The notes: a model not told the origin generated them from the sequence alone. A stretch of DNA of 64,000 bases from an uncultured Acidobacteriota bacterium (GCA_963742265.1 CAVULC010000002.1:243016-307015); one strand, 5' to 3'; positions 26,282 to 58,266 are shown, counted from the stretch's first letter. Made by a program: numbers and translations.

Positions 26282-29200
26282 ATGCAGCGCTCGATCTGTG
26301 GATACGTGTGGCTTGGCATCCTTTCAGTCGCCCTCACGCTGGCGGCATTGACCCCGGTGAGCGCGCAGTCCGTGCTCGACGGACGCCGTGCGGAGTTCTC
26401 TCCGTCGGCGGAACACAACGCGGTTGATCCGACGACTGGTGTTCCGCTCGTCGACAGCTACATGCTGCAGATCTTCGTCGCCGGTGACAGCACGCCGGTG
26501 CAGACCGTCAACCTGGGCAAGCCGTCCCCCGACGTGGACGGCATGATCCGTTTCGACTATGTCTCGCTGCTCTCGAGCCCACTCACTCCCGGCGTCATCT
26601 ACGAAGCGCAGGTGACGGCGATCGGACCTGGCGGCAGTGCCGCAAGCGAGCGTTCCAACACGTTCGCGTTCAGCGCCACGTGTGCGCCGACCATCTCGCC
26701 GTCAACCGCCAACGGTGCCTCGACCGGCTTCAACGGCGTGGTGGCGGTGACGGCCGGCGCTGGCTGCGCGTGGACCGCGAGCAGCGATGCGGCGTGGGCG
26801 ACGATCACGGCCGGCACGGCCGGTACCGGCAACGGCTCGGTGAGTTACAGCGTCGCGCCCAATACCGGAAGCACCCCTCGCAACGCCGTCCTCACGATCG
26901 GCGGCAACAGCTTCACCCTGACACAGGCCGGCGCTCCGTGCGTCGCGACGATCTCGCCAGCATCTGCGAGCGTCTCTGCGAGCTCGTTCTCCGGCACCGT
27001 GCCGGTCACCGTCGGCGCCGGGTGCACGTGGACGGCCAGCAGCAACGCGTCCTGGATCACGATCAGCGGAGGCACGAGCGGCAGCGGCAACGGATCGACG
27101 ACCTACAGCGGCACGGCGAACACCGGATCCACTTCTCGTACTGGAACGTTGACGATCGCCGGCAACACGTTCACCGTGACCCAGGCAGCAAGCGCCTGCA
27201 CCCCGACCATCTCGCCGGCGTCGGCGAACGTTGCTTCGGCGGCTTTCACCGGAGCGGTGGCGGTCACGGCGGGCAGCGGCTGCACGTGGACGGCGGTCAG
27301 CAACGCATCCTGGATCTCGATCACCGCCGGTGCCAGTGGCACCAGCAACGGATCGGTCGCCTATTCAGGCACCGCCAACACGACGAGCACGTCTCGTTCT
27401 GGAACGTTGACGGTCGCCGGCAAGACCCTCACGATCACCCAGGCCGGGGCCGCCTGCACCCCGACGATCGGATCCACGTCAGCGAGTGTGGTGGCCGGTG
27501 GCGGCACTGGCAGCGTGGCTGTGACAGCAACGAGCGGCTGTTCGTGGACGGCGACGAGTAACGCCGCCTGGATCACCGTCACTGCCGGCGCGAGCGGCAG
27601 CGGCAACGGCTCGGCCAGCTACAGCGTTGCCGCCAACACGACCAGCACTTCTCGTTCTGGAACCCTGACGGTTGCCGGTAAGACCTTCACGATCACCCAG
27701 GCCGGGGCGGCCTGCACCCCGACGCTGTCGGCGCCCACGGCGAGTGCGGTGGCGGGTGGCGGCACCGGTGCTGTGGCGGTGACCGCCGCGAGCGGTTGCT
27801 CGTGGACGTCTACCAGTAACGCCGCCTGGATCACGATTACGGCCGGCGCGAGCGGCAGCGGCAACGCGTCGGTGAGCTACAGCGTTGCGGTGAACCCGAA
27901 CAGCGCAGCTCGCACTGGCACGCTGACTATCGCCGGTAACACGTTCACCGTGACGCAGGCCGGCGCCGGTTGCACTCCGACGATCTCGCCAGTCTCGGTC
28001 AACGTCGGCGCCGGCGGATCGACCGCCACTCTTCCCGTCACGGTCGCGGCGGGCTGTAGTTGGACGGCGGTCAGCAACGCTGCCTGGATCACGATCACGG
28101 CAGGTGCGAGCGGAACCGGGGACGGTGCCGTGAGCTACACGGTAGCGGCGAACACTTCGAGCGCCTCGCGCACCGGGACGCTCACCGTCGGTGGTAACAC
28201 CTTCACGGTGACCCAGGCCGGTGTTCCCTGCGTGCCGACGATCTCACCGGTCGCGGCCGACGTCGTGGCCGCGGGCGGTTCGGGTGTGATCCCGGTGACC
28301 GCGGCGAGCTGGCTGCGCATGGACGGCGACCAGCAATGCCGCGTGGATCACGGTCACTGCCGGTGCCACCGGCAGCGGCATCGGCTCGGTCAGCTACAGC
28401 GTCGCCGCGAATCCCGGAAGCGCGGCTCGCACCGGAACGGTCAGCGTCGGTGGGAATACCTTCACCGTCACGCAGGCGGGCCTCCCCTGCACGCCCACGA
28501 TCTCACCGGCGTCGGTCAATGTCAGTGCGTCCGGCTTCGCTGGAAACGTTCCGGTGACCGCCGCGACCGGCTGCTCGTGGACCGCTTCGAGCAACGCGGC
28601 GTGGATCACGATCAGCGCCGGCGCCAGCGGCAACGGCAGCGGCTCGGTGAGCTACAGCGTTGCGGCCAATAGCACCAGCACCTCGCGCAGCGGCACGCTG
28701 ACCGTCGGCGGCAACACGTTCACCGTCACCCAGGCTGGACTGCCCTGCGTGCCGACGTTCTCCCCGACCTCGGCCAACGTCGGCGCGTCCGGCTTTACGG
28801 GCGTAGCTCCGGTCTCGGCCGCAACCGGCTGCGCGTGGACGGCGACGAGCGACTCCCCCTGGCTCACGATCAGCGGCGCGGCCTCCGGCAGCGGCAATGG
28901 GTCGATCACCTATGTCGCCGCCATCAACACCGACACCAGCCCGAGAACGGGAACGCTGACAGCTGGCGGAAACTCCTTCACGGTGACGCAGGCCGGCAAC
29001 GTCTGCCTGGCAACACTGTCGGCGACCTCGAGCAGCGTGGGCTCGATTGGATTTACCGGCGTGGTGTCGGTCAGCGCCGGGACGGGCTGCGGCTGGACGG
29101 CGGTGAGTAACGCCGCATGGATCACGATCACCGCCGGGGCATCCGGCAGCGGCAGCGGGTCCGTCACTTACAGCGTCGCGGCCAACACCGGAACGTCCGC

Positions 29201-30042
29201 GCGCACCGGAACCTTCACCGTGGGCGGGAATACCTTCACCGTCACGCAGGCGGCGCCGGTGTGCACGGTCTCGCTGTCATCGACCTCGATCAACATCGGA
29301 GCCGCGGCCTTCACCGGAGTGCTGCCGGTCAGCGCCGGAACGGGCTGCGCCTGGACAGCGACGAGCAATGCCGCCTGGATCACGGTCACTGCCGGTGCCA
29401 CCGGCAGCGGCAGCGGGTCGGTCACCTATGTGGCTGCGGCCAATACTTCGGCCACTCCGCGGACCGGCACGATCACGGTCGGGGGCAACACCTTCACCGT
29501 GACTCAGAGCGGCGGAAGTTCCTGCTGGTACAGTCTGTCAGCGGCGAGCCAGGCGCTCGCGGCCGGCGGCGGCAGCGGTAACGTCTCGGTGACGACGGCC
29601 ACTGGTTGTGCCTGGAGCGCCAGCAGTGATTCTTCCTGGGTGACGCTGACCAACGGGACCGGCCGCTCCGGGTTCGGATTGGTCGGATTCACAGCATACC
29701 GCGAATACGACCGGAGCTGCGCGAACCGCGACACTGACGATCGCAGGCAGCACCTTCGTCATCACCGAGCCGAGCAACACGTGCACGTTCTCCGTCTCGC
29801 CATCCCTGGTGATCGCGTCACCGGGAGGAGCAACCGGATCGATCACGGTGACCACCCAGCCCACGTGCAACTGGACGACGTCGACAAATGCTCCGTGGGT
29901 AACCATAACTCCATCGGGCACCGGTACAACGACGCTGACTTACACGGTGCCGCCGAATACCGGAACGCTGTCGCGATCGGCAACGATCAGTGTTGCCGGC
30001 GTACTGGTCACGCTGATCCAGAACCAGCCGCCAGTACAGTAA
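26282..30042 (+). CDS. secreted repeat protein: N-terminal Ig/FN3-like module + 13 tandem BACON-like domains (2 frame changes, about 28307 and 29690)
   Basis: Signal peptide [30 protein letters not shown]. About 86-aa units of the form C-x-PT-ISP..(a)-x-G-x-VAVTA-x-x-GC-x-WTA-x-SNA-x-WITITAG-x-SG-x-G-x-GSVSYSV-x-AN-x(4)[19 protein letters not shown]. Fragments 26282.., 28554.. and 29809... Confidence 0.8.
26681..30039 (+). repeat. 13 tandem coding repeats, period 258 bp
   Basis: The first Cys codon of each unit recurs at 26681, 26939, 27197, and so on. The period is mirrored by minus-strand ORF-track entries starting every 258 nt (26845, 27103, 27361, 27619, 27877, 28135 ...). Confidence 0.9.
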
Positions 30043-30060
30043 GCGCCGGTCCTCGCCTAT

Positions 30061-30099
30061 CGTGATCCTGTTGTGCGCCCTCGGCACAACAGGATCACG
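30061..30099 (+). terminator. perfect 16-bp stem / 7-nt loop hairpin downstream of the repeat-protein gene
   Basis: CGTGATCCTGTTGTGC-gccctcg-GCACAACAGGATCACG, starting 19 nt after the stop codon. There is no clear U-tract, so its intrinsic-terminator function is uncertain. Confidence 0.55.
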
Positions 30100-43522: not shown

Positions 43523-45368
43523 ATGAAAACACCGACACTGATCGGCGCGGGCCTTCTCGCGCTCGCTTTCGTTCCGAGCCCGCTCTGCGCGCAGCAGGTG
43601 CAGACGCAAACCATCCAGGTCGGCGGCGCCGCGGGCGAGATGCCGATGATGCAGCTCCCCGGCATGGGGCGGCCGATGAAGACCGGCACCGGCCGCATCA
43701 AGGGCCGGGTGGTGACGACCGATACCGGCGCGCCGGTGCGGCGCGCGCAGGTCAGGATCACCGGGTCCGACGTTCCGCCCAAGATCGCGGTCACCGACAA
43801 CGACGGGCGGTACGAGTTCCGCGACCTTCCGTCCGGCAAGTACAACGTCAATGTCACGAAGTCGGGTTACGTCAGCGTTCAGTACGGTCAGACGCGTCCG
43901 TTCGAGCAGGGCAAGTCGATCGAGCTGGTCGAATCGCAACCGATGGACAAGGCGGACATCACGATGCCGCGCGGCTCGGTCATCTCCGGGCGGCTGGTCG
44001 ACGAGTTCGGCGATCCCATGCCGGACGCAACCGTAACGGCGATGCGTCAGACCTGGAGCAACGGCAAACGGCGGCTGCAGTCGGCCGGCCGTACGGCACA
44101 AACGAACGATCTCGGTCAGGTACCGCCTCTACGGGCTGCCGCCCGGCGAGTACTACATTTCAGCGACGATGCGCGGCAGCAACGAGATGATGGTGACCGA
44201 AATGGCAATTGCGGCCAGCTTCTCGGTCAACACCGGCGGTCCGCAGCCTTCCGGTTCGGAACCGCGCTCAGGATATTCGCCGACCTACTATCCCGGAACG
44301 CCCAACGGCGGTGAAGCGCAGCGCATTCCCCTCGGTGCCGGCGAGGAAAAAGGGAACGCCGATTTCGGCCTGGTGCCGGTGAAGCTGGCCAAGGTGACCG
44401 GGAGCGTGATCGGTTCTGACGGTAAGCCGGTCGAAGGCGCGATGATCAACCTGGCGCCACGCAACTCGAGCGAGATGGCGTTCCCCAATCCCTTCGGCGG
44501 ATCCCGCACCGACAAGAACGGCAACTTCACGCTCCCGAACGTCGCGCCCGGCGACTACACGCTGCGCGCGAGCGGCATGCGCGTGTTCATGACCGGCGGC
44601 GACGGGGGCGGCGACAACATGGTCTTCGCGACCCGCATCAACATGGGCGGCGGTGACGGCCAGACCGAGTTCGGGGCGGTGTCGCTGTCGGTCAACGGCG
44701 AGGATATTCCCAACGTGATGATCGTCACCTCGAAGGGCACCAGCGCCACCGGCCACGTGACCTGGGAAGGCGGATCGAAGCCGACCAATACCGCGACCGT
44801 GCGGATATCCGCGATTGCCACTGACTCTGACGGACCTGCGGCCCTCGCCGGCGGCTCCGCGGCAGTTGGTGCGGACGATGCCTTCGAGATCAAGGGCCTC
44901 GCCGGGCAGCGGCTGTTCCGCGCGACCGGCCTGCCGCCGGGATGGCTGCTGAAGTCAGTGAAGGTCAACGGGCAGGACATCACCGACACCGGCATCGAGG
45001 TGAAGCCGAACGAGCCGGTAACCGGGCTCGATGTCGTGCTCACCTCGAAGACGACCGAGATCAACGGCTCGGTGAAATCCGGAAACGACCCGGCGACGGA
45101 CTACACCGTCGTGATCTTCTCCGACGATGCCTCGAAATGGGCGGTGCCGATGACCCGCTTCATCACCGGCACACGGCCCAACCAGGACGGCCGCTTCCAG
45201 GTGAAGAACCTGCCGGCCGGCAGCTACTACGCGGTCGCGCTCGACTACATCGCGCAGGGTGAATGGAACGATCCGGACGTGCTCGAACGCCTGGTCGAAA
45301 AGGCCACGCGCTTCACGCTGGAGGAAGGCAAGGTCGAGACGCTCGACCTCAAGCTCTCCGGATCCTAG
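43523..45368 (+). CDS. secreted CarboxypepD_reg-like domain protein, paralog A (1 frame change at about 44120)
   Basis: Signal peptide MKTPTLIGAGLLALAFVPSPLCAQ. GRIKGRVVTTDTGAPVRRAQVRITG..TDNDGRYEFRDLPSGKYNVNVTKSGY, ISGRLVDEFGDPMPDATVTAM, VTGSVIGSDGKPVEGAMINL..DKNGNFTLPNVAPGDYTL. C-terminal ..LPAGSYYAVALDYIAQGEWNDPDVLERL... Confidence 0.8.
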
Positions 45369-45385
45369 ACCGACCGGGCGAGGCG

Positions 45386-46120
45386 TCAGCGCGGCTTCTC
45401 GAGCAGCGTTGCGGCCTCGTCCTCCTCCCCTTCCTCGACCGGCCCCTTCTTCCGCGCGTAGCCGTAGGCGATCGCGAAGATCACCACGATCAACCCGAAC
45501 GAGATCCACTTGTTGATGTGCCAGCCGACGTAGCCGGCGCTGTTCAGGAACTCGACCGTCAGCTTGATCGCGACCCACGCGATGATGATAAAGGCGCCGT
45601 CCACCAGCGCGGGGTAGCGCCGGACCAGCCGCAGCAGCTGGCCGATGACCAGCCGCATCGTGATGATGCCGAGAATGCCGCCGCTGATCACGACCCAGGT
45701 TTTCGGTGACATCGCCACCGCCACGAGAATCGAATCCACCGCAAACACGACGTCCGTCAGTTCGACCTTGACGACCGTCGCCCAGAACGCCGACAGGCCC
45801 AGCGCCGGCCTCGCCGGCCTGATCGCCGTGCGTGACTCCCCGTCTCCGCTGCCGAAGAAGTGATTGACCGACAGGTAGATCAGGTAGCCAGCGCCAACCA
45901 GCTTGACCCAGCCGATGCTCAGCAGGTGGACGGCGAGCAGCACCGCCAGGATCCGGAACGCGAACGCGCCGACAATGCCGTAGCGAAGCGCTTTGCGCTG
46001 CTGGCTTTTCGGCAGCCCCAGCACCAGGATCGCCAGCACCAGCGCGTTGTCGGCGCTCAGCAGCCCCTCGATGATCACGAGAAGGCCGATGGTTATGAAG
46101 TCGGTGGCGTGAACGTCCAT
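45386..46120 (-). CDS. TerC family integral membrane protein
   Basis: LLVIIEGLLSADNALVLAILV.. and the second-half repeat ..VELTDVVFAVDSILVAVAM... Confidence 0.85.
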   Translation of the reverse strand: MDVHATDFITIGLLVIIEGLLSADNALVLAILVLGLPKSQQRKALRYGIVGAFAFRILAVLLAVHLLSIGWVKLVGAGYLIYLSVNHFFGSGDGESRTAIRPARPALGLSAFWATVVKVELTDVVFAVDSILVAVAMSPKTWVVISGGILGIITMRLVIGQLLRLVRRYPALVDGAFIIIAWVAIKLTVEFLNSAGYVGWHINKWISFGLIVVIFAIAYGYARKKGPVEEGEEDEAATLLEKPR

Positions 46121-46165
46121 CGGTTGGTAATCAGCGGCCGGGCGGGCGCGACGATTCGCGCATCA

Positions 46166-46196
46166 CCTTGACACGTTACGTATCAAGGCCTATCGT
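46166..46196 (+). promoter_or_regulatory. HAIR-like (HspR-associated inverted repeat) operator overlapping a TTGACA-17-TATCGT promoter
   Basis: CCTTGACACGT-T-ACGTATCAAGG (46166-46188) is a 23-nt palindrome with one mismatch. Its core CTTGACA-N7-TATCAAG has the half-sites and spacing of the HAIR consensus CTTGAGT-N7-ACTCAAG. TTGACA at 46168-46173, TATCGT at 46191-46196. Confidence 0.65.
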
Positions 46197-46230
46197 TGAT
46201 GTGACGCAACCTTGGGCCGTCGAGGCGAAC

Positions 46231-46563
46231 ATGATTGAGCACGATCTCTACTTTATCAGCATGGCTGCGCAACTGCTGGACATGCATCCGCAGACGCTGC
46301 GCAAATACGAACGGCTTGGCCTGGTCCGGCCGACTCGCACCGTCGGCAGCATGCGGGTCTACACGCGCGAGGAGCTGGACCGGCTCAGACTGATCAAGTT
46401 CCTGGTGGATGAGGCGGGGGTCAACCTGGCCGGTGTGCAGCGGCTGCTGGAAATCGCCGAAGCCGTGCAGCGCATCCGTCCGCTGATCAAGGAAGGGCGG
46501 CCCGAGTCGCGCCGCCGGATCGCGTCCGAGCTCCAGCGCATCGCCGAGATGGCAGGGATCTGA
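46231..46563 (+). CDS. hspR: MerR-family heat-shock repressor HspR
   Basis: YFISMAAQLLDMHPQTLRKYERLGLVRPTRTVGSMRVYTREELDRLRLIKFLVDEAGVNLAGVQRLLEI. Followed by J-protein and clpB genes. Start taken at MIEHDLY, because the ORF-track start at 46168 lies inside the operator. Confidence 0.85.
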   Translation: MIEHDLYFISMAAQLLDMHPQTLRKYERLGLVRPTRTVGSMRVYTREELDRLRLIKFLVDEAGVNLAGVQRLLEIAEAVQRIRPLIKEGRPESRRRIASELQRIAEMAGI

Positions 46564-46566
46564 GGG

Positions 46567-47545
46567 ATGGACTTCAAGGACTACTACCAGACGCTCGGCG
46601 TGGCGAAGGGGGCCTCCGAAAAGGAGATCAAGCAGGCGTATCGCAAGCTCGCCCGCAAGTTTCACCCGGACGTGAATCCCGGCGACAAGGCAGCCGAGGC
46701 GAAGTTCAAGGAGATCAACGAGGCCAACGAAGTACTCGGCGATCCCGAGAAGCGCCGCAAGTACGACGAGCTCGGCGCCAACTGGCGGATGTACGAGCAG
46801 GCGCAGCAGCAGGGCTACGGCGCGGGCGGTTCGGCCAATCCATTCGGTGGCGGCGCCTGGAACATCAACACCGGGGGCGGTTCCGGCAGCTATCGCACGA
46901 TGACCGAAGAAGAGATGCAGGAGATGTTTGGAGACGAGAATCCGTTCTCCGACTTCTTCAACGCATTCTTCCGGCCCGGCGAACCGCGGGCGCGATGCCG
47001 GCCGGTCACGCGGCCGCGCGCGCACGCAAAAAGGGCGCGACATCGAGCACGAAGTGGAGCTCACGCTGGAAGAAGCGTTCCACGGCGCGACGCGCCGGAT
47101 CTCGATCAAGCAGGGTGGGCACGCGCGCACCGTCGACGTCCGAATACCGGCGGGTGTGAAGGATGGATCGCGCGTCCGCGCCGCCGGCGAAGGCGAGTCC
47201 GGCACCAATGGCGGCACCTCGGGCGACCTGTACCTGCGCGTCAAGCTGCGGCCGCACCCCATGTTCGAGCGCGACGGGAACGATCTGCGCACGCGCGTCG
47301 CTGTCCCGGTCACGACCGCGGTGCTCGGCGGCGAAGCCAACGTGCCGACGATCAACGGCTCGGTGCGGCTGAAGATTCCCGAGACGACGCAGAACGCCCA
47401 GGTGTTCAGGCTCAAGGGCCACGGCATGCCGGTGCTCGGCAAACCCGACGAGCGCGGTGACCTGTATGCCGCCGCGGAGATTCAACTCCCCCGTTCGTTG
47501 TCCAAGGAGCAACGGCGGCGGTGGGAGTCGTTGAATGAAGATTGA
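46567..47545 (+). CDS. cbpA: DnaJ-family co-chaperone, CbpA-like, no zinc finger (1 frame change at about 46975)
   Basis: J-domain [37 protein letters not shown]-terminal substrate-binding domains in fragment 46928..47545 ([47 protein letters not shown]..). Confidence 0.85.
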
Positions 47546-47630
47546 AGATTGCCGATTGGCCGATTCGCCGATTGGCAGATTGACCGATTGGCCGATTGCC
47601 GGGAGCTGACAGCTGAGAGCTGAGAGCTGG
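47537..47630. repeat. compound tandem array: about eight 7-8-nt units ending in GATT (GGCCGATT-like) followed by four AGCTGAG heptamers, filling the cbpA-clpB spacer
   Basis: GAAGATT GAAGATT GCCGATT GGCCGATT CGCCGATT GGCAGATT GACCGATT GGCCGATT gccggg AGCTGAC AGCTGAG AGCTGAG AGCTGG tt ATG. It starts inside the last cbpA codons and ends 2 nt before the clpB ATG. Confidence 0.9.
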
Positions 47631-47632
47631 TT

Positions 47633-50228
47633 ATGAACATCAACAAGTACACAGAGAAGGCCCAGGAAGCAGTCATTGCCGCGCAGACGCTGGCGGACCG
47701 CGAAGGGCATCCGGAAATTACGCCAGAGCATCTGCTGCTGACGCTGGTCGAACAGCGGGATGGCATCGTCCCTTCGATCGTGACGAAGATGAATGTCGAC
47801 CCCGCCGCCCTCGCGGTTGCGGTGAGGACCGAGATCGGACGACTGCCGCGCGCGCAGGGAGGATCGCAGCCCTCGATTTCCTCCCGCCTGCGGCGGGTGA
47901 CCAGCTCGGCGGAGTCGGAGGCGGAACGTCTGAAGGACGAGTACGTCAGCACCGAGCACCTGTTTGTCGCGATTGCGAGTGAAGGCGGCCGTTCGGCGTC
48001 GTCGCGGATCCTCGAGCAGCGCGGCATCACGCGGGATGCCATCCTGCAGGCGCTCGCCTCGGTCCGCGGCTCGCAGCGGGTCACCAGTCAGAATCCGGAG
48101 TCGACCTACGAATCGCTGGCGCGCTATGGGCGCGATCTCACCGAGCTCGCGCGCAAAGGCAAGCTCGATCCGGTGATCGGCCGCGACGAGGAGATCCGTC
48201 GCGTGATCCAGGTGCTGTCGCGACGTACCAAGAACAACCCGGTGCTGATCGGCGAGCCGGGCGTCGGCAAAACGGCAGTCGTCGAAGGTCTGGCGCAGCG
48301 GATCGTCCGGCAGGACGTCCCCGAGGGTCTCAAGAACAAGAAGATCTTCGCGCTCGACATGGGCGCGCTCGTCGCCGGCGCGAAGTACCGCGGTGAATTC
48401 GAGGAACGGCTCAAGGCGGTCCTCAAGGAGATCACCGATGCGCAGGGGCAGATCATCCTCTTCATCGACGAGCTCCACACCGTGGTCGGGGCCGGCGCCG
48501 CCGAGGGGGCGATGGACGCCTCGCAGATGCTGAAACCGATGCTCGCCCGGGGCGAGCTGCACACCGTCGGCGCGACGACGCTCGACGAGTACCGGAAACA
48601 TATCGAGAAGGACGCCGCGCTCGAGCGCCGCTTCCAGCCGGTCATGGTCGGCGAGCCGACGGTCGAAGACACGATCAGCATCCTGCGCGGATTGCGCGAG
48701 CGCTACGAGATCCATCACGGGGTGAAGTTCAAGGACTCGGCCCTCGTGGCCGCGGCGGTGTTGTCGCATCGATACATCAGCGACCGCTTTCTGCCTGACA
48801 AGGCGATCGACCTGATCGACGAGGCCGCCTCACGTCTCCGCATGGAGATCGACTCGATGCCGGCGGAGCTCGACGAGGTCCAGCGACGGCTGATGCAGCT
48901 CGAGATCGAACGCGAGGCCTTGCGCAAAGAGAGCGACAAGGCATCGATCGAGCGGCTCGAGCGCCTCGAGAAGGAACTGGCCGACCTGAAGGAACAGAAA
49001 GACCAGCTGACGGCGCACTGGCAACAGGAGAAAGACACGATCCAGCGCGGACGCAAGCTGAAGGAAGAACTGGAGCAGGTGCGCCTCGACATGCAGCGCG
49101 CGCAGCAGGCGGGCGATTACGCCAAAGCGTCCGAGTTGCAATACGGCCGGCTCCCGCAGCTCGAACGCCAGATCCAGGACGAGGAACAGCGGCTGGCTGA
49201 CGTGCAGAAGAACCAGCGGATGCTGAAGGAGGAAGTCGACGAGGAAGACATCGCCGAAGTGGTGAGCCGCTGGACGCACATTCCCATCAGCCGGCTGATG
49301 GAAGGCGAGATCCAGAAGCTGCTCAGGATGGAGGAACGGCTGCATCACCGGGTGATCGGACAGGATGAAGCGATCCGCGCGGTCGCCAACGCCATCCGCC
49401 GGGCCCGCGCCGGACTGCAGGATCCGAATCGACCGCTCGGCAGCTTCATCTTCCTCGGGCCGACAGGTGTCGGCAAAACCGAGCTCGCGCGTGCGCTCGC
49501 CGAGTTCATGTTCGACGACGAGCAGGCGATGATCCGGATCGACATGTCCGAATACCAGGAGAAGCACACGGTGTCGCGGCTGATTGGTGCACCTCCGGGA
49601 TACGTCGGCTACGAAGAGTCAGGCCAGCTGACCGAAACGGTTCGGCGCCGGCCCTACTCCGTCGTCCTGTTCGACGAGGTCGAGAAGGCACACCCGGAAG
49701 TACTCAACGTCATGCTGCAGCTGCTCGACGACGGGCGGCTGACCGACGGGAAAGGACGGACGGTCGACTTCAAGAACACCGTCGTGATCATGACCTCGAA
49801 TATCGGCAGCCACTACATCGCCGCAGGCGGCCGGCGAACCCTCGTTGAGCGAAGGGGTCAAGCGCCAGGTGATGGACGCGCTGCGCGAACACTTCCGTCC
49901 GGAGTTCATCAACCGCGTCGACGAGATCATCGTATTCCACGCGCTGAGCCGCGCCGAGATGCGCGAGATCATCGACATTCAGCTGCGCGGCCTGTTGAAG
50001 CGGCTGGAGGATCGCAAGATCCGGGTCGAGCTCAGCGAAGATGCGAAGGACTTGCTGATCGCGGAAGGATACGATCCGACGTATGGTGCACGTCCCTTGA
50101 AACGCACGATTCAACGCCGGGTGCTGGATCCGCTTGCCATCAAGGTCCTGCAGGGAGAAGTCGGCGAGGGAGAAACGGTCCGCATCGACGCGCCCGCCGG
50201 CGAGCTGGCATTCGAGGCCACGCGCTAA
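47633..50228 (+). CDS. clpB: ATP-dependent chaperone ClpB (1 frame change at about 49830)
   Basis: Clp_N repeats. Walker A motifs [15 protein letters not shown] and [15 protein letters not shown]. Long coiled-coil M-domain. The true C-terminus is in fragment 49845..50228 (..[30 protein letters not shown]..). Confidence 0.93.
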
Positions 50229-52125
50229 ATGGCAGACGAAAAAGCGAAACCGCCGAATCCACGCGGCAAGCGCCACGGGCCGGAGCGTCGCCTCACGCCA
50301 CGCCCGGCCCCCAGCCAGGCGATCTGGATGGTGCTCGGTTTCTTCCTGCTGCTCGCGCTCGGGCAGGCCGTGTTCTTCTCGATGCAGGCCGGGAGCACGA
50401 TCTCCTACAGCGATTTCAAGGCGGCGGTGCGTGCCGGGCGCGTGCAGGAAGTGATCGTGTCGGAGGAAGCGATCCGCGGCACGATGAAGGCGCAGGAGAA
50501 TGCGAAGGCGGAGCCGTTCAACGCCGTCCGGATCGAGGATCCCAAACTGGTCGAAGAGCTCGAAAAGGCCGGCGTGTCGGTACGCGGCGAACGGGCGAGC
50601 CGCTGGATGGGCGAGCTGCTCGGCTGGATCATTCCGCTCGTCTTCTTCGTCGGGCTGTGGGGGTTCTTCTTCCGCCGCATGGGTGGCGCGGAAGGTGGTG
50701 TGATGTCCTTCGCGCGCAGCAAGGCCAAGGTCTATGCCGACGATGATGTCGCCGTTCGCTTCGAGGATGTCGCGGGCGTGGACGAAGCGGAAGAGGAACT
50801 GAAAGAGATCGTCGAGTTCCTGCAAGACGCCGAAGAAGTACACCAGCATCGGCGGCAGGATCCCCAAAGGCGTGCTGCTCGTCGGCCCTCCGGGTACCGG
50901 CAAGACGCTGCTGGCGCGAGCGGTCGCCGGCGAGGCCAAAGTTCCCTTCTTCAGTCTCAGCGGATCCGAGTTCGTGGAAATGTTCGTCGGCGTCGGCGCG
51001 TCACGCGTCCGCGACCTGTTCGCACAGGCCGACGCAAAGGCGCCGTGCATCGTCTTCATCGACGAGCTCGATGCGCTCGGCAAAGTGCGCATCCAGTCAC
51101 CGATGGGCAGTCACGAGGAACGCGAGCAGACGCTCAACCAGCTGCTTGCGGAGATGGACGGCTTCGACGCGCGCAAGGGCGTGATCATCATGGGCGCGAC
51201 CAACCGTCCGGAGGTGCTCGACCCTGCCCTGCTCCGCCCCGGACGGTTCGACCGGCAGGTGCTGGTCGACAAGCCCGACAAGCGCGGACGTGAAGACATC
51301 CTGCGGATCCACGTCAAGACGGTGAAGATCGGCGAAGGAGTGGATCTCAAGATCATCGCGGCCCGGACCGCCGGTTTCGCCGGCGCCGACCTCGCCAATC
51401 TGGTCAACGAGGCGGCGCTGCTCGCGGCCCGTCGCGACAAGACGGCGGTCGACATGAAGGACTTCGACGCAGCGATCGACCGGATCGTCGCCGGCCTCGA
51501 AAAGAAGCGCGTGATGAACGACAAGGAGCGACGGATCGTCGCCTATCACGAATCGGGTCACGCGATCGTCGCCAGCGTGCTGCCCGGACTCGATCCGGTT
51601 CACAAGATCTCGATCGTGGCGCGCGGCTTCGGCGCGCTTGGCTACACGATGCAGCTGCCGCTCGAAGACAAGTACCTGCTCACCCGTGAAGACCTCCTGA
51701 ACCAGCTCTCGGTGCTGCTCGGCGGCCGCAGTGCGGAGGAGATCGCGTTCGGTGAAGTAACTACTGGTGCGCAGAACGATCTAATGAGAGCGACCGATAT
51801 CGCGCGCGCGATGGTCACCGAGTTCGGGATGACCGAGGAGCTCGGCGCGGTGAATTACACCGCGCACAAACGGTCGCAGTTCCTCGAGATGCCGTTCGCG
51901 CCAGAACGCGGCCCCTACGCGGAGGAGACGGCGCTCAAGATCGACAATGCCGTGAAGCAGCTGCTGGTACAGGCGCACCAGACCGCGCGACAGGTCCTGC
52001 GAGAACGTAGGGACGTGCTGGACCGGGTTTCCGCCCGGCTATTGGAGAAGGAAGTAATCGAAGCGGAAGAGCTGCGGACGCTGCTCGACGATACCGCGGC
52101 GGATGGTGGTAATCCTCGTTCCTGA
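50229..52125 (+). CDS. ftsH: ATP-dependent zinc metalloprotease FtsH (1 frame change at about 50840)
   Basis: TAAATG junction with clpB. Two N-terminal TM helices. [34 protein letters not shown], and zinc site HESGHAIVA. Fragments 50229.. and 50872... Confidence 0.93.
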
Positions 52126-52163
52126 GGTCTATATTGGTTCGAATCAGTTGTATACGCTCTGGG

Positions 52164-52191
52164 CCTCTAGCCCTTAGCCCGTAGCTCCAGG
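52164..52191. repeat. short heptamer array (CCTCTAG CCCTTAG CCCGTAG CTCCAGG) downstream of ftsH
   Basis: Read directly. It lies in the 133-nt spacer between ftsH and the response-regulator gene. Confidence 0.6.
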
Positions 52192-52258
52192 CGGAGTGTG
52201 TCCACCTGAGGCGATCGTTCGCTGTCGAACCCATCGTATTGGAGACCGAACGAAACCC

Positions 52259-52926
52259 ATGACCCAGCTGGAACGGTCCATTGACGCTCCCCCCCCATCA
52301 TCCTCCTCGTCGAAGACGACGCAGATACGCGGGAACTCTACCGCGCGGCCTTCGAGCTGGAAGGCTTCTGGATGGCGGAGGCTCCGAGCGCGGACGAGGC
52401 GTTCGAATACGCGCAGGATGTCATGCCCGACGCGATCCTGACCGACATCGGGCTTGACGGCGACGGGAACGGGATCGACTTCGTGCGGCGGTTGAAAGCG
52501 CTCCCGAAGATGAGCGATATCCCGGTGCTCGCGGTCACCGGGCGCGATCTGCGGCGCCTGCCGGAGCACGCCGGGCTGTTCTCCGACATTCTCATCAAGC
52601 CCGTCTTCCCGGACGTGCTGGTAAACAAGGTCCATGACCTGCTGCAGCACTCTGCCGGTTTGCGGATGAGGAGCGCTCAAGCTCGTGAGAAGACACCGGC
52701 ACTCGTCGCGAAATCGGCCGAACTCCTTGAAAAATCCCGCCGGTTGACCGCCGACGGGTCGATAAACGTCGCCCGTGAGTGTCCGAAGTGCGGCACGCCT
52801 TTGACCTGGGCCGAACGGCGGGTGACCCTCGGCGTGGTGTTCGACTACTACCAGCCCTGCGCGCAGGGTTGCGGACTCTTCTGCTACGATCACGGAGGCC
52901 GTAATTTCGTAGCCCTGATTGAATAG
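52259..52926 (+). CDS. response regulator: receiver domain + C-terminal Cys-rich (zinc-ribbon-like) domain (1 frame change in a C8 run)
   Basis: IILLVEDDADTRELY.., DAILTDIGLDGDGNGIDFV, PVLAVTG, ILIKP. C-terminal CPKCGTPLTW..YYQPCAQGCGLFC. The N-terminal MTQLERSIDAPPP joins the receiver frame if the homopolymer at 52289-52296 is one C longer. Confidence 0.8.
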
Positions 52927-54792
52927 CCCGTGCATGACGCTGCCGACTGACGTCGAATATTTCGAACCGATACTCAAGCACCTCGAGCAGACCCGGGGCT
53001 TCGATTTCACCGCCTACAAACCGACCAGCCTGATGCGCCGGCTGGTGCGCCGGATGCAGATGGTGAACGTCGGAAGCTTCGAGCAGTATCTCGACCTGCT
53101 CCAGGTGGACAACGAAGAGTTCACCGCGCTCTTCAACACCATCCTCATCAATGTCACATCGTTCTTTCGTGACAAGGACGTGTGGGACACACTCGCTGCC
53201 GAGATACTCCCGAAGGTATTCTCCGACCGGAATCCGGCGCTGCCCTTCCGCGTGTGGAGCGCCGGGTCCGCTTCCGGACAGGAGGCCTACAGCATCGTCA
53301 TGCTGCTGGCCGAACAACTCGGTCCCGACATCGTGCGCGAGCACGTCAAGGTCTACGCGACCGATCTCGATGAAGACGCGCTGCTCGAAGCACGCCAGGC
53401 GACGTATTCCGCCCGGCAGGTCCAGGGCGTGCCCGCGAATCTGCTGGAGAAGTACTTCGACCGGAGTGGGGACTCGTTTCGTCTTCAATCGCGACCTGCG
53501 GCGCGCGGTAATCTTCGGACAGCACGACCTGGTGCAGGACGCACCGATCTCGCGGCTCGACCTCCTGATTTGCCGCAACACGTTGATGTACTTCAACGCG
53601 GACGCACAGGCGCGGATCCTGGCGCGCTTCTACTTCTCGCTGAACCCGGAGGGGCTGATTCTCCTCGGCCGGGCTGAGATGCTCTTCAGTCATACGGCCA
53701 TGTTCACGCCGGTCGATCTGAAGCGCCGGATCTTCAAGGCCGTCGCCAAGCCGAATCATCGCGACCGCATGCTCTTGCTGGCGCAGACCGGCAGAGACCT
53801 GACCCCGACGGCGGCCCCGAACGAACAGCGCCTGCGCGACGCGGCGTTCGACACCGAAGCCACGGCCCAACTGGTGACCGAGCCGTCCGGCACGATCGTC
53901 GCGGCCAACGCGCGGGCGCGAGAGACGTTTGGCCTGACGAGCAAGGATCTCGGTCGGCCGCTCGACGACCTGGAACTGTCGTACAGACCATCCGACCTGC
54001 GCATGTCGATCGAGCGCGCGCTCAACGAACGGCGGGAAATCAGGGTCGCCGACGTACCCTGGACCCTTCACGGTGACCTGCGGGCCTTTGACATCGTGAT
54101 CACTCCCCTGCTCGGCGACGATCGCTCAGTGCTGGGCTCCAGAATCAGTTTCCAGGATGTCACTGAGCTGAAAGCACTTCGGATCGAGCTGCAGCACTCC
54201 AAGCAGGAGCTCGAGACTGCTTACGAGGAGTTGCAATCGACTAACGAGGAACTCGAGACCACGAACGAAGAGCTCCAGTCGACGGTCGAGGAGCTGGAGA
54301 CGACGAACGAGGAGCTCCAATCGACCAACGAAGAGCTCGAGACGATGAACGAAGAGCTCCAGTCGACGAACGAGGAGTTGCACACCACTAACGAAGAGTT
54401 ACGGAACCGCAGCAGCCGAGTTGAACACCGCGAATGGATTTCTCGAGGCGGTGTTTGCGAGCCTTCGGTCCGCGGTAGTCGTAGTCGATACGGACTTTCA
54501 CGTGCTGGTGTGGAACGATCGCGCGACCGAACTGTGGGGTGTGCAGCAGGCCGAGGCACAGCACAAGCACCTCATGAGCCTGGATATCGGCCTCCCGCTC
54601 GGGGACCTGAGGCAACCCATCCGGGACGTGGCAAACGGCAGCAAAACCACCGCGGAATCTGTATTATCTGCAATCAATCGCCGGGGTAAGTCGTTCGACT
54701 GCCGGGTCGCGTTGACGCCGCTTCGGCAGAATGATGGAAACACCGCCGGTGTGATCATCCTTATGGAAGAAGCCGCAGGGATACCGACATGA
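52919..54792 (+). CDS. cheR: CheR-type protein-glutamate O-methyltransferase fused to PAS - Glu-rich coiled coil - PAS (2 frame changes, about 53480 and 54400)
   Basis: FDFTAYKPTSLMRRLVRRM (CheR_N). FFRDKDVWDTL..FRVWSAGSASGQEAYSIVMLL..VKVYATDLDEDAL..DLLICRNTLMYF (SAM-dependent MTase). PAS (..LVTEPSGTIVAANARARETFGL..). EELQSTNEELETTNEEL coiled coil. Second PAS in fragment 54421..54792. Confidence 0.85.
54225..54402 (+). repeat. about 8.5 tandem 21-nt (heptad) coding repeats encoding NEEL(Q/E)(S/T)T
   Basis: EELQSTNEELETTNEELQSTVEELETTNEELQSTNEELETMNEELQSTNEELHTTNEELRNR. Confidence 0.9.
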
Positions 54793-55364
54793 CAAGCCTT
54801 CATCTACTTACGGTCCGGACCGCGGCGGCAATCGGCCGTCTGTCGGCTCTCCAGAAACGCGCCGAGCGGTTGACCGGTCCGGGAGGCCCGGTCATCAAAC
54901 CGGCACTGAAGGAGTTATCCGATTCGCTCGAAGAGTTGCAGGTGGCCAACGAGCAGCTCCAGCAGCAGGTCGACATGCTGGTGGAGGCGCGGACGTCGGT
55001 GGAGGCGGTTCAGAACCGGTATCTGGAGTTTGTCGACGCCGTTCCGGTCGCGTGTGTGTGGACCGACAGTGACGGACAAATTGTGCAGGCGAACACGGCG
55101 GCGGCTTCGCTGCTCAATGTGTCGAGCCAGCACCTGCAGGGACGGCCGTTGATGTTCTTCATCGTCGATCGTGACAAGTTCCGCGACGCGCAGGCCGCGC
55201 TCAACGGTCAACTCACCTCGGTGGTGGAGATGTCGCTGGCGTTGCGTCCCCGCGAGCGCCGCTCGCGGCAGGTGCGCCTCATCGGCCGCCGTCTTCAGCA
55301 CGATGACCGCCGCTGCTGGTTCATCCAGCAGGATTCCGAAACCGCAGACGCGTCGGCCTCCTGA
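54789..55364 (+). CDS. coiled-coil + PAS domain protein
   Basis: ATGA overlap with the cheR-like stop. LEELQVANEQLQQQVDMLVEARTSVEAVQNRYLEFVDAVPVACVWTDSDGQIVQANTAAASLLNVS..LQGRPLMFFI is PAS-like. Confidence 0.7.
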   Translation: MTSLHLLTVRTAAAIGRLSALQKRAERLTGPGGPVIKPALKELSDSLEELQVANEQLQQQVDMLVEARTSVEAVQNRYLEFVDAVPVACVWTDSDGQIVQANTAAASLLNVSSQHLQGRPLMFFIVDRDKFRDAQAALNGQLTSVVEMSLALRPRERRSRQVRLIGRRLQHDDRRCWFIQQDSETADASAS

Positions 55365-55378
55365 CGCGTATCGATCCG

Positions 55379-56425
55379 CTACCGATCCACTAGATTCGTA
55401 ACCGGCACGACCGGCTCGGCGTTTTCGTCGGGCGATTCGTGTCCGGTCGTGCGATTCACGAGCATCTCGCGCACCACGGCTGCATGCTGCCGCGCTTCTT
55501 TCGCCCGGGCTTCAAACGCGTTCGCCACCCAGCCGTGCTGACGCTCCCGAGCGCGTTCCGCCATTTTCGTCGTGAGGGAGGCGCGCTCTTCCAGAGATCG
55601 GAGCGCCGCCCACAACGCGCGGTCGACCGAATCGGTCTGCGCCGCCAGCATGCTTTCCGAACTGTAGACGTGACCCACTCGACAGCGGAACCTGAGGATT
55701 CCGAGGTCGTCGGTCTCCCACAAGCTGCCGTGACACTCGGGGCAGCTGTAGACCGATAACCGCCCAGGCCGATCCTCGGGTCCGAGTGCGATCAGGGCTT
55801 CTGAGTGGTCAGGCTCGATGGGCGCGAGATGCGGACCCGTCTGCGCGGCGTCCCTCGGTGCTCTTTCGAGCGCAAGGGTCGTGAGCAGGATCGGGATCTC
55901 GCGCAGTGGCAGCACGTGATCGACAGAGACCAGGTTCATCGCGCTTCGCGGCATGCTCGGGGAGAACGCCTCGTCGGGATCCTGCACCACCGCGATTCCG
56001 CCGGCTTCCTTCACCGCAGCCAGACCAGCCGTCCCATCGTCGAGCGCGCCGGTAAGAACGACGCCGACGACCCTGGTGCCGAACGTCCGGGCGGCCGATC
56101 TGAACAGTGGATCGAGTGCTGGACGTACACCATTCTCGGACGGGCCATGCTGCACCCGCACTCGAGTTCCCTCTACCGTCAGATGGTGATCGGGAGGGGC
56201 CACGTAGATGTGCCCGTAGTGCAGTTCGTCACCGTCGTGCGGGTGTGTCGCCGGGAGTCGCGACACGCGCGAAATGATGTCAGGCAGGACGCTCCGGCCG
56301 CGTGAGATGTGGAGCACCACGAGCACCGCGGCGCGAAGGTCACGCGGCAGCCCGGCGAGCACGGTGGTGATTGCCTCGACCCCACCGGCCGAGGCGCCGA
56401 TCACGACAATATCGTGTGTGTTCAC
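55379..56425 (-). CDS. cheB: CheB-type protein-glutamate methylesterase catalytic domain (no receiver domain) + C-terminal Cys-containing/helical extension
   Basis: IVVIGASAGGVEAITTVLAGLP (active-site Ser region), HIYVAPPDHHL, VGVVLTGALDDGTAGLAAVKEAGGIAVVQDP. Extension YSCPECHGSLWE..FRCRVGHVYS. Confidence 0.85.
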   Translation of the reverse strand: MNTHDIVVIGASAGGVEAITTVLAGLPRDLRAAVLVVLHISRGRSVLPDIISRVSRLPATHPHDGDELHYGHIYVAPPDHHLTVEGTRVRVQHGPSENGVRPALDPLFRSAARTFGTRVVGVVLTGALDDGTAGLAAVKEAGGIAVVQDPDEAFSPSMPRSAMNLVSVDHVLPLREIPILLTTLALERAPRDAAQTGPHLAPIEPDHSEALIALGPEDRPGRLSVYSCPECHGSLWETDDLGILRFRCRVGHVYSSESMLAAQTDSVDRALWAALRSLEERASLTTKMAERARERQHGWVANAFEARAKEARQHAAVVREMLVNRTTGHESPDENAEPVVPVTNLVDR

Positions 56426-56470
56426 GGTCCGGTCCCCTGCATGTTATACGCCCGTTTTTTCCTTGGCGAG

Positions 56471-56512
56471 GTTAGACTCTCGCTGGCCGTTTTGGCCACG
56501 TGGGGGTCTAAC
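56471..56512 (+). other. nested hairpin in the 5' leader of the CarboxypepD_reg paralog B gene
   Basis: GTTAGAC tctcgc TGGCC gtttt GGCCA cgtgggg GTCTAAC. It ends 5 nt before the ATG (56518). Confidence 0.4.
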
Positions 56513-56517
56513 TGACC

Positions 56518-58266
56518 ATGCTGACCGTTCTCCTCCTGATGCTGTTTGGCGCGCCGTTCAACCCGCAGGTTGCTGGCGGAACAATTGGCGGCACTGTCCA
56601 GGGGCTTCCCGCGCCCCAGGGGCCACCGCGAGACCAGGCGCAGCGACCGGTTACCGGGAACAGCTCGATCAGCGGTCGCGTGGCGACCGCTGACAGTGGC
56701 ATGCCGGTCCGGCGCGCGACGATCAGCCTGTCGGGCACGTCAGTCCCCAGGCGCTCGGTGTATACGGACGCGGAAGGACGCTATGCGTTCACCGGGTTGC
56801 CGGCTGGGACCTACCAGTTGAACGCATCTCCCGGTACGCAACGCGGCCATTATCTCGCGGCTGCTTACGGGCCGACCGCGACCGGCCCGCTCGTGCGTCC
56901 GACCCCGATCGAGCTGGCCGCCGGGCAGCAGATGACTGATGTCAACATCGCGCTGCCGCGGGGCTCGGCGATATCGGGAACAGTCACCGACGAGAGCGGC
57001 GAACCGCTCGCCCGCGTACAGGTGAGCGCAATGCTGGTTCGGCGGGGCGGTGAGCCGATGCAGACAGGCGGCGCGCAGACCGACGATCACGGACGGTACA
57101 GGCTCTTCGGACTGCAGCCCGGTGAATACACGGTCGTCGCCGAGGCCCGGGACTTCGGCGGCACGGAAGTGCAAGGTGAAGCAGTCGGCTTCGCGCGCGC
57201 CTACGCACCCGGAACACCCAGCCTTCTGCAGGCGCAACGGGTCAGGCTCACCCGAGGCACCGAAGCGAGCGCCGACATACGTCTCGGCGAGACCCCGCTC
57301 TTCAAAATCACTGGCAGGGTCATGGACTCCTCCGGTCAGCCGGTGCGGCCCCAGTCGGTTTCCGTGCAGTCGACGGCAGAAGGATCGCGCAACGGATTTG
57401 GCTTCTCCACGAGGAACAACAACCTGGAATTCACCGTTGGGGGACTTCCCGCAGGTCAGTACGAGATCACGGTGAGGCATGATCCCGGGCGTGCGGTGAT
57501 GACCGGCTCGATGGGCGGGTCCGGCGGTCCGCCGCCGCCTCCTCCCCCGCCGGGCCCCGGCGCCGATAGTCGCGTGGAGATGGCCTCGATGGTCATCGAC
57601 GTGTCGGCTGACGTTGAGGGCGTCGTCCTGATCACGCAGCCGGGCGCAACTGTCTCAGGGGAGTTCGTGTTCGAAGAGCCCGCCGAGGGTCGCCGTGCGC
57701 AGGTATCCACGGTAAATGCCGGCCGGCCGAACGCGATGACGAATCCAGCCAGCGCCGAGGTGACAGAGAACGGTTTCACGCTGAAGGGGCTCTTCGGTCC
57801 GGTTCTCATCCGCGGCACGGTGAATGGTCCGGGGTGGGCGTTGAAGGCCGTCCTGTTGAACGGCAAGGACATCACCGACGTGCCGACCACACTGACGACG
57901 AAAGACAGCGGCCATCTCCAGGTGGTGTTCACGTCTCGCGCGGCGGCGATCGAGGCGCTGGTGACCGATGCGTCGGGCAAGCCGACGCGCGAAAGTATTG
58001 TCGTTGTCTTCGGGCGAGACGAGCAGACGTGGGTCACGCGCTCGTCGATGACTCGAATCGTGGGCCCGGACAAAGACGGGAAACTGACGGTTCGAGGACT
58101 TCGCGACGGGGAATACTACGCGGTTGCAGTTGCACCAGAGGATTGGACGAACATCGGCAACCCGGATACGGAAATGCTGAGGGACTTGAGCAAGGTGGCG
58201 ACTCGTGTCTCCGTGACCGCAGGCGAGACGCGCACCGTCGATCTGATGGTCACCAGGCTGCAGTAG
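56518..58266 (+). CDS. secreted CarboxypepD_reg-like domain protein, paralog B
   Basis: Intact 582-aa ORF. ISGRVATADSGMPVRRATISLSG..TDAEGRYAFTGLPAGTYQLNA, ISGTVTDESGEPLARVQVSAM..TDDHGRYRLFGLQPGEYTVVA, ITGRVMDSSGQPV. C-terminal ..LRDGEYYAVAVAPEDWTNIGNPDTEMLRDL.. is collinear with paralog A. Confidence 0.8.
   Translation: MLTVLLLMLFGAPFNPQVAGGTIGGTVQGLPAPQGPPRDQAQRPVTGNSSISGRVATADSGMPVRRATISLSGTSVPRRSVYTDAEGRYAFTGLPAGTYQLNASPGTQRGHYLAAAYGPTATGPLVRPTPIELAAGQQMTDVNIALPRGSAISGTVTDESGEPLARVQVSAMLVRRGGEPMQTGGAQTDDHGRYRLFGLQPGEYTVVAEARDFGGTEVQGEAVGFARAYAPGTPSLLQAQRVRLTRGTEASADIRLGETPLFKITGRVMDSSGQPVRPQSVSVQSTAEGSRNGFGFSTRNNNLEFTVGGLPAGQYEITVRHDPGRAVMTGSMGGSGGPPPPPPPPGPGADSRVEMASMVIDVSADVEGVVLITQPGATVSGEFVFEEPAEGRRAQVSTVNAGRPNAMTNPASAEVTENGFTLKGLFGPVLIRGTVNGPGWALKAVLLNGKDITDVPTTLTTKDSGHLQVVFTSRAAAIEALVTDASGKPTRESIVVVFGRDEQTWVTRSSMTRIVGPDKDGKLTVRGLRDGEYYAVAVAPEDWTNIGNPDTEMLRDLSKVATRVSVTAGETRTVDLMVTRLQ

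Follow-up and report, generated by a model that had tools for sequence, protein, structure and literature searches.

Reversible glutamate methylation is the textbook form of sensory adaptation and is understood almost only for chemoreceptor arrays. The methylesterase CheB and the methyltransferase CheR also occur fused in single proteins, a family for which we know of no demonstrated function. KEGG lists it as K13924 ([quoted passage not shown]), and the literature that we searched yielded no functional study of the family and K13924 in annotation lists only. Alternative chemosensory pathways contain CheR-TPR fusions (PMC3447774; for FrzF, PMC2535941), and Salmonella CheR methylates the response regulator PhoP, the nearest precedent for a substrate that is not a methyl-accepting chemotaxis protein (MCP) (PMC8546571). 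Here we describe a four-gene module in a 64,000-nucleotide stretch of DNA from an uncultured Acidobacteriota bacterium (GCA_963742265.1, CAVULC010000002.1:243016-307015), referred to as the window. In this module, a CheR joined to two PAS domains and a coiled coil is accompanied by a CheB, a small PAS protein and a receiver (REC)/zinc-ribbon protein. A preliminary description of this DNA had proposed a methylation switch without chemoreceptors, which remains the best reading of the anatomy, conservation and gene linkage reported below. In our estimate there is a probability of roughly 0.5 that CheR and CheB form a chemoreceptor-independent, PAS-gated pair that methylates its own coiled coil.

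Domains were called by Pfam on frame-joined proteins, which were obtained from a list of open reading frames (ORFs) and three-frame translation. The features of the module are the following:

52259-52926 (+): REC/zinc-ribbon gene, 222 residues after frame correction; Pfam Response_reg
52934-54792 (+): CheR-PAS-coiled coil-PAS gene, about 618 residues after frame correction; Pfam CheR_N, CheR and two PAS
52961-53729 (+): CheR_N and S-adenosylmethionine (SAM)-dependent methyltransferase domains, residues 10-265; PF03705 and PF01739
53874-54176 (+): PAS domain 1 of the CheR protein, residues 314-414; PAS_4, PAS_9 and PAS_10 matches
54205-54404 (+): heptad coiled coil of the CheR protein, N-E-E-L-Q/E-S/T-T, about 9 repeats; candidate methyl-accepting array
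54225-54380 (+): near-invariant core of the coiled coil, 52 residues, positions 432-483
54439-54765 (+): PAS domain 2 of the CheR protein, residues 504-612; PAS and PAS_8 matches
54789-55364 (+): small coiled-coil/PAS gene, 191 residues; Pfam PAS, E = 6.8e-8
55379-56425 (-): CheB gene, 348 residues, convergent to the other three genes
55892-56407 (-): CheB methylesterase catalytic domain, residues 7-178; PF01339, E = 2.9e-55
55442-55762 (-): C-terminal extension of CheB, with a zinc ribbon (residues 222-255, CPEC...RCRVGH) and a two-helix hairpin (residues 256-328)

The four genes lie where the preliminary description had placed them, and its domain calls are confirmed by Pfam on the frame-corrected proteins. 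One boundary changes: the CheR gene had been given as 52919-54792, and its presence and end stand, but the ATG at 52934 is most likely its start rather than the TTG at 52919. The ATG of the small PAS gene overlaps the CheR stop codon (ATGA), as described before. NCBIfam returned generic CheR, CheB and PAS-type matches only, every one under its equivalog cut-off, and a promoter and terminator scan of 51800-56700 did no better than on shuffles.

The enzymes and the coiled coil

Both CheR and CheB look active, in that their catalytic motifs are intact. In canonical CheR, a basic helix faces the acidic substrate. This substrate-binding helix, alpha-2, is retained in the window protein (LMRRLVRR versus NRLVRRLR in the alignment to Bacillus subtilis CheR, 5ftw), and so are the SAM motifs WSAG..G.E.YS, ATD.D and CRN...YF (alignment to 5ftw and 1bc5). 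The CheR part matches 5ftw with E = 2e-36, and within it Pfam recognizes CheR_N (1.2e-14) and the SAM domain (2.6e-51). For CheB, the Ser164/His190/Asp286 triad of Salmonella CheB (1a2o) is matched in the alignment by Ser12, His39 and Asp130, which are invariant in 41 homologues, and the modeled fold matches CheB crystal structures (Foldseek E = 1e-17). Thus, the earlier calls of a complete CheR and of a CheB catalytic domain are upheld, the motifs being present after frame correction. There is no N-terminal receiver on CheB: the protein begins at the catalytic domain, and its sole Pfam match is CheB_methylest.

That match covers residues 7-178 only, and the CPEC...RCRVGH motif lies beyond it, which agrees with the receiver-less CheB with a cysteine-bearing C-terminal extension that had been described. 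The extension is 170 residues long and strongly conserved in the 41 homologues (consensus DRPG...CPEC.G.LWE...R[FY]RCRVGH.Y...DSVDRALW.ALR.LEER). AlphaFold2 predicts a zinc ribbon with a confidence score (pLDDT) of about 80 and a two-helix hairpin with one of about 98. The extension has no Pfam model, no sequence relative in the PDB and no significant fold match there (best Foldseek E-value 0.1, to generic hairpins). A full-library search found it in 4571 clusters (50% identity), and 2725 of these matched with E <= 1e-10; all five full-length matches that were tested with Pfam contain a CheB domain, and five shorter ones, which had no Pfam match, may be fragments. We conjecture from the model that the shape of the hairpin suits packing on a two-helix coiled coil. 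Kinship of the hairpin with symerythrin or rubrerythrin was considered and rejected, the matches having E-values above 0.1 and being to generic helical hairpins only, with the would-be metal-ligand positions not conserved across homologues.

Many cyanobacterial and other loci have two adjoining CheB genes, one extended and one short (about 190 residues, catalytic domain only), as in L019 (3043-4657), L036, L042, L043, L046, L054 and L072. CheB-extension-CheB fusions also exist (P0253, 570 residues, and a 541-residue ORF in L058).

The Glu-rich coiled coil of the CheR protein sits between its two PAS domains, as the preliminary description had it, and appears in the DNA as a 21-nucleotide tandem repeat (8.4 copies, 54205-54398). 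It is the most constrained part of the protein. In a cross-phylum set, column conservation is 0.61 for CheR_N, 0.72 for the catalytic (SAM) domain and 0.58-0.59 for the PAS domains, against 0.91 for the coiled coil (positions 425-490) and about 0.97 for its core. Compared with 79 other species, the 52-residue core has a mean amino-acid identity of 95% despite a third-codon-position identity of 53%, which drops to 23-31% in low-GC cyanobacteria. This indicates that purifying selection holds every core residue, surface positions included, and bare coiled-coil formation would not demand such conservation at every residue. PDB sequences resembling the segment are generic coiled coils only, and when only the coiled coil served as query, the homologues returned were all fragments of at most 163 residues.

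The constrained residues carry a pattern found at chemoreceptor methylation sites. Once the sequence and numbering of Tsr had been checked against PDB chains, the pattern E[EQ]xx[AST][AST] was found in its cytoplasmic domain at 296, 303, 310 and 492 and nowhere else. The second residue of each site (297, 304, 311 and 493) is the methylated one. In the CheR protein, the same pattern occurs at seven sites (432, 439, 446, 453, 460, 474 and 481), all in heptad phase, and none of the four module proteins has it outside the coiled coil. Shuffled versions of the protein or the coiled coil gave a mean of 0.4-0.6 matches and a maximum of 5, never 7. The heptads are in the same register as methylation helix 1 of Tsr (M-E-Q*-L-T-A-T-V in Tsr, N-E-E-L-Q-S-T-V in the coiled coil). 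The preliminary description had left the substrate of CheR and CheB open; judged by sequence, the CheR protein's own coiled coil is now a strong candidate, and we put the chance that it is the methyl acceptor at about evens.

Linkage, output partners and the proposed switch

Homologues were surveyed in one genome per species by a family-alignment scan, which matched at least 587 stretches. Gene neighborhoods were taken from the best 80, in which ORFs were called and compared with the four window proteins. These 80 matches are full-length (about 615 residues, 49-59% identity) and span about ten phyla. They come from Acidobacteriota, Gemmatimonadota, Planctomycetota, Chloroflexota, Armatimonadota, Methylomirabilota, Burkholderiales, Kapaibacteriota, Cyanobacteria (Nostoc, Anabaena, Stigonema, Scytonema) and Actinomycetota (Mycobacterium, Pseudonocardia, Amycolatopsis, Actinoplanes, Nocardioides, Solirubrobacteraceae). 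In 72 of the 80 loci, a CheB of any kind is encoded no more than 3 kb from CheR, and in 56 a CheB with the C-terminal extension (42 of 56 among loci with complete flanks). The extended CheB is on the same strand as CheR within that distance in 50/80 and directly upstream of it on that strand in 43/80.

CheB and CheR are encoded by separate, convergent genes in the window, and they are separate also in the 80 related loci. The window has the traits of this split-module family, namely a CheR-PAS-coiled coil-PAS protein of about 615 residues with the near-invariant EELQSTNEELETTNEEL core and an adjoining receiver-less, extended CheB. The preliminary description had contrasted the split genes of this DNA with fused relatives. 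The stand-alone form is standard in at least 80 species genomes, and the split arrangement is the rule across phyla, not an oddity of the source genome. At least 8000 homologue matches were scored for each of CheR-PAS and CheB; the named ones are from Vicinamibacterales metagenome-assembled genomes (MAGs) with the JGI label "CheB/CheR fusion protein", and by these names the source of the window presumably belongs to Vicinamibacterales. The window copy is an ordinary member of a very large, database-catalogued family.

Chemoreceptor machinery was sought by tblastn with the E. coli Tsr signaling domain, CheW and CheA P4-P5. Neither these searches nor Pfam of large ORFs revealed an MCP, CheW or CheA P5 in the 64-kb window, the part of the source genome that was searched, as the preliminary description had stated; the sole tblastn match was the ATPase domain of an unrelated HAMP-HisKA kinase (1552-5490). 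The four module proteins have no kinase domain and no MCPsignal by Pfam and no similarity to the Tsr signaling domain. The same queries found no MCP, CheW or CheA P5 in 85 related loci (1.23 Mb). These results on the window and the 85 loci make it very unlikely that CheR and CheB are ordinary chemotaxis adaptation enzymes for MCP arrays encoded elsewhere in the genome, even though their catalytic domains are clearly homologous to chemotaxis CheR and CheB and the JGI and NCBI pipelines name them as chemotaxis enzymes. Besides the count of 0/85, this CheB has no receiver for CheA to phosphorylate, CheR is fused to PAS domains, and the neighboring outputs are kinases, PP2C phosphatases and STAS proteins, not che genes. 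Also, the pair is kept in Mycobacterium and Pseudonocardia, which are not known to have flagellar chemotaxis; neither these two genera nor Amycolatopsis, which also carries the module, are known to be motile.

Some of the neighboring outputs share a head. In 28 of the 80 loci, the first ~190 residues encoded by a neighbor gene align with the 191-residue window protein, and this common head consists of a helix, an "LEELxVAEEELRQQNEEL" coiled coil and a PAS domain. Beyond the head, the proteins carry HisKA and HATPase, or HisKA, HATPase and REC, or GAF-PAS-kinase-REC, or a SpoIIE-type PP2C phosphatase. The neighbor in actinobacteria is instead a STAS and HATPase_c_2 protein of about 240 residues, sometimes with a further STAS protein, which suggests that the methylation module feeds a partner-switching cascade there. 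Such anti-sigma-kinase-like ORFs lie next to, or between, CheB and CheR (L059 7156-7878, L068 7163-7930, L045 9897-10622 and L025 9924-10676), and L059 also has a separate STAS protein. RefSeq annotates the CheR/CheB pair on plasmids as "CheR family methyltransferase" and "chemotaxis protein CheB"; on one plasmid, of Azospirillum lipoferum, genes for a PAS-HisKA kinase and a response regulator come after the pair. The earlier observation that the module has no kinase therefore holds for the four window proteins (Pfam) but is lineage-specific, kinases occupying the same position in other phyla.

The 191-residue protein itself has an N-terminal helical region and one PAS domain, and matches the coiled-coil/PAS2 region of the CheR protein with 28% identity (E = 1e-4), a weak paralogy. 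The preliminary description of an ATGA-coupled coiled-coil/PAS protein at 54789-55364 is borne out by Pfam and by the overlapping start and stop. Since it aligns with the N-terminal ~190 residues of kinases and a phosphatase elsewhere, the protein is, on that alignment, equivalent to the sensor head of the usual output proteins, with no output domain attached.

The REC protein matches Response_reg over the full profile (E = 1.7e-14) and ends in a linker helix followed by a four-cysteine C-x2-C...C-x3-C ribbon (CPKC...PCAQGC), consistent with the receiver with a Cys-rich C terminus reported earlier at 52259-52926. The acidic pocket VEDD, the phospho-acceptor Asp (LTD), the Thr (AVTG) and the Lys (IKP) are all visible; BLASTP against CheY gave no match, and the REC call rests on Pfam and these conserved residues. 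The cysteine pattern is kept in four orthologues, and intact 222-residue orthologues exist. The protein should, from these residues, be phosphorylatable. Because it keeps all phospho-acceptor residues, it needs a kinase from outside the module, and the earlier reading of the module as self-contained is not supported. Among the 80 and close loci, the gene is present only in Vicinamibacterales loci and one other acidobacterial MAG (L012), and the loci that have it are among the few with the short head protein.

The switch that we propose would work as follows. (i) The CheR-PAS-coiled coil-PAS protein would be enzyme, sensor and substrate together, its coiled coil presenting about seven Glu-Glu pairs, one per heptad, with Ser/Thr one helical turn off, as in MCPs. 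(ii) The CheR domain would methylate these glutamates with SAM, probably across a dimer, and the receiver-less CheB would take the methyl groups off again; the zinc-ribbon/hairpin would stand in for the receiver and probably docks CheB on the coiled coil or regulates it. (iii) We infer that the flanking PAS domains sense a cytoplasmic cue and alter site accessibility or coiled-coil conformation. (iv) The methylation level would be passed to a partner with a related N-terminal "EEL" coiled coil and PAS domain, presumably a histidine kinase or PP2C phosphatase in most phyla and a STAS/anti-sigma-kinase protein in actinobacteria. In the window lineage, this partner would have been cut to the 191-residue head, and a REC/zinc-ribbon gene would have joined the operon, its product being phosphorylated by a kinase from elsewhere in the genome.

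Several observations weigh against methylation of the coiled coil. The strict consensus [ASTG][ASTG]xx[EQ][EQ]xx[ASTG][ASTG] has three matches in Tsr and 0 in the CheR protein, whose upstream small pair is one residue too near, and the E-to-Q substitutions that are common at MCP sites are nearly absent. With Asn in each "a" position, the coiled coil is predicted to be weak and dynamic. A pattern search found no small-residue motif in the partner heads, and signal transfer to them is conjectural. The scheme does not account for the REC/zinc-ribbon protein, which is confined to a few acidobacterial loci. The literature searched contained no biochemical evidence for such methylation. Also, the extreme conservation could instead be due to binding of CheB, the partner head or some further protein.

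These points allow for an alternative in which CheR and CheB modify another protein, such as the REC/zinc-ribbon protein (in its acidic pocket) or a different response regulator, the partner kinase or some unlinked target, and the coiled coil is only a dimerization or signal-transmitting helix or a docking rail. Salmonella CheR does methylate EE/ED pairs of the response regulator PhoP (PMC8546571), and the window REC protein offers its VEDD pocket, but nearly all of the 80 loci with the CheR/CheB pair lack the REC/zinc-ribbon gene. The unmet strict consensus likewise speaks for another target, and conservation by itself cannot separate a substrate from a binding surface; however, output partners vary between phyla, and only the coiled coil always accompanies both enzymes and alone bears MCP-like motifs. 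We regard modification of another protein as the main rival, unlikely but with a chance that is still appreciable.

If the pair does methylate its own coiled coil and so feeds kinases, phosphatases and partner-switching, methylation-based adaptation would be a general signaling add-on and not a specialty of motility. A more tentative extension, which we hold to be somewhat less probable than not, is a stand-alone molecular memory: a PAS-sensed cytoplasmic signal would be stored as the methyl count on a seven-to-eight-site array in the coiled coil of the CheR protein and read by interchangeable heads driving kinases, PP2C phosphatases or anti-sigma partner-switching, giving adaptation without receptors or arrays, in non-motile bacteria and in about ten phyla. 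Cyanobacteria and actinobacteria are among the carriers of the gene pair, as are abundant soil lineages. The hypothesis lends itself to direct testing, as it involves three small, soluble proteins: an enzyme, a candidate substrate and an eraser. Both the zinc-ribbon/hairpin domain of CheB and the 52-residue coiled-coil sequence have been without structural or functional description so far.

Sequence quality and neighboring genes

The frame corrections come from aligning window positions 47600-56450 with an intact metagenomic locus (L001, 92% identical). Six single-base indels separate the two: 49823 (ClpB), 50227 (ClpB/FtsH junction), 50822 (FtsH), 52290 (REC), and 53480 and 54415 (CheR). The REC frame is broken by a 1-nucleotide deletion in a C-run at about 52290-52299 and the CheR frame by 1-nucleotide insertions; the majority of the six are insertions outside long homopolymers. 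The L001 proteins are intact (222, 618, 191 and 348 residues) and about 95% identical to the corrected window proteins. Among the homologues, P0001 is an intact 618-residue CheR orthologue (95% identical) and P0121 a CheB identical to that of the window (100%).

Three of these indels interrupt REC and CheR, as they would if the locus were decaying, with real frameshifts and both genes pseudogenes. We consider this highly improbable: identical single-base indels hit ClpB and FtsH within the same 7 kb, the residues flanking every shift are 95% identical to intact orthologues, and the CheB and small PAS genes are unbroken. Since indels of the same kind break the essential ClpB and FtsH and orthologues are intact, they are most likely errors of long-read assembly, not gene decay. 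Further window genes may therefore be falsely frameshifted. The FtsH-REC intergenic region (52160-52190) contains short CCCTCTAGC-like direct repeats, the copy number of which differs between the window and L001 (a 9-nucleotide deletion plus a 4-nucleotide insertion).

Relatives at 63-95% identity have the module behind a MerR-DnaJ-ClpB-FtsH cluster and ahead of CarboxypepD_reg genes. This heat-shock cluster occupies 44169-52125 in the window, and the module invariably comes after it in the Vicinamibacterales relatives (L001, L002, L003 and L005). L005 has no REC gene; the start of CheR there overlaps the stop codon of FtsH, suggesting that the module is co-transcribed with proteostasis genes. 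In L003, a divergent GAF-PAS-HisKA_3 kinase adjoins the REC gene. Because the module lies directly behind the heat-shock cluster, it may serve stress control or temperature signaling in Vicinamibacterales; the order may also be no more than synteny. The site behind this cluster is lineage-specific, as are the output-less head protein and the REC/zinc-ribbon gene.

The only kinase in the window, a 1313-residue sensor kinase (1552-5490, +), is 47 kb from the module; its last 300 residues hold HAMP-HisKA-HATPase, and the first ~1000 have no Pfam match. Other large ORFs encode, by Pfam, MutS, BNR/sortilin, Band_7, M48 and M56 peptidases, BACON repeats, TerC, CarboxypepD_reg, CoA-binding and radical SAM proteins. 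The BACON region (26762-29507) is a 258-nucleotide tandem repeat (10.6 copies, 70% identity) that encodes at least 10 BACON/BACON_2 domains. Two ORFs (26282-28672 and 28554-30065, +) overlap there in different frames and may be one large protein split by a further indel; on the minus strand, the repeat produces, as an artifact, evenly spaced 85-codon ORFs that each terminate in a stop. At the thresholds used, the long ORFs at 11354-12568 (+), 15363-17063 (-), 16364-18040 (-) and 46186-47442 (-) have no Pfam match; some may be spurious high-GC antisense frames or frameshift fragments.

Comparison with known systems

The adaptation system of Tsr and Tar in E. coli and Salmonella shares with the module a homologous SAM-dependent glutamate methyltransferase and a Ser-His-Asp methylesterase. 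The candidate array is also alike, with Glu-Glu pairs and small residues at heptad spacing in the register of Tsr 297, 304 and 311. In contrast to Tsr and Tar, the module has no MCP signaling hairpin, CheA/CheW array or pentapeptide tether; its CheB has a zinc-ribbon/hairpin in place of a receiver, and its CheR is fused to PAS domains and the putative substrate. The four or five sites on a four-helix bundle would be replaced here by seven or more on one continuous coiled coil.

The K13924 proteins resemble the window protein in the order of CheR, a NEEL-type heptad coiled coil and PAS domains. They differ in an additional, apparently degenerate CheB-like domain at the N terminus and an HWE kinase at the C terminus, neither of which the window protein has, and their coiled coil is more variable than that of the window family. 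An example is WP_237352232.1 of Rhizobium sp. N324 (1325 residues), in which the degenerate CheB-like domain and CheR precede a NEEL-type coiled coil, then PAS_10, PAS and the HWE kinase; a separate 339-residue CheB is encoded upstream. This protein bears out the fused CheB-CheR-PAS-kinase relatives that the preliminary description had mentioned.

In the Wsp, Frz and Che3 pathways, as proposed here, CheR and CheB serve outputs beyond flagellar rotation and CheR may have an extra regulatory domain, but those pathways still use MCP, CheA and CheW, of which the 64-kb window has none. Finally, PhoP demonstrates that acidic pairs outside MCPs can be methylated by enzymes of the CheR type (PMC8546571). 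There, a chemotaxis CheR is moonlighting, whereas the module described here would be a dedicated enzyme and substrate that are inherited together.

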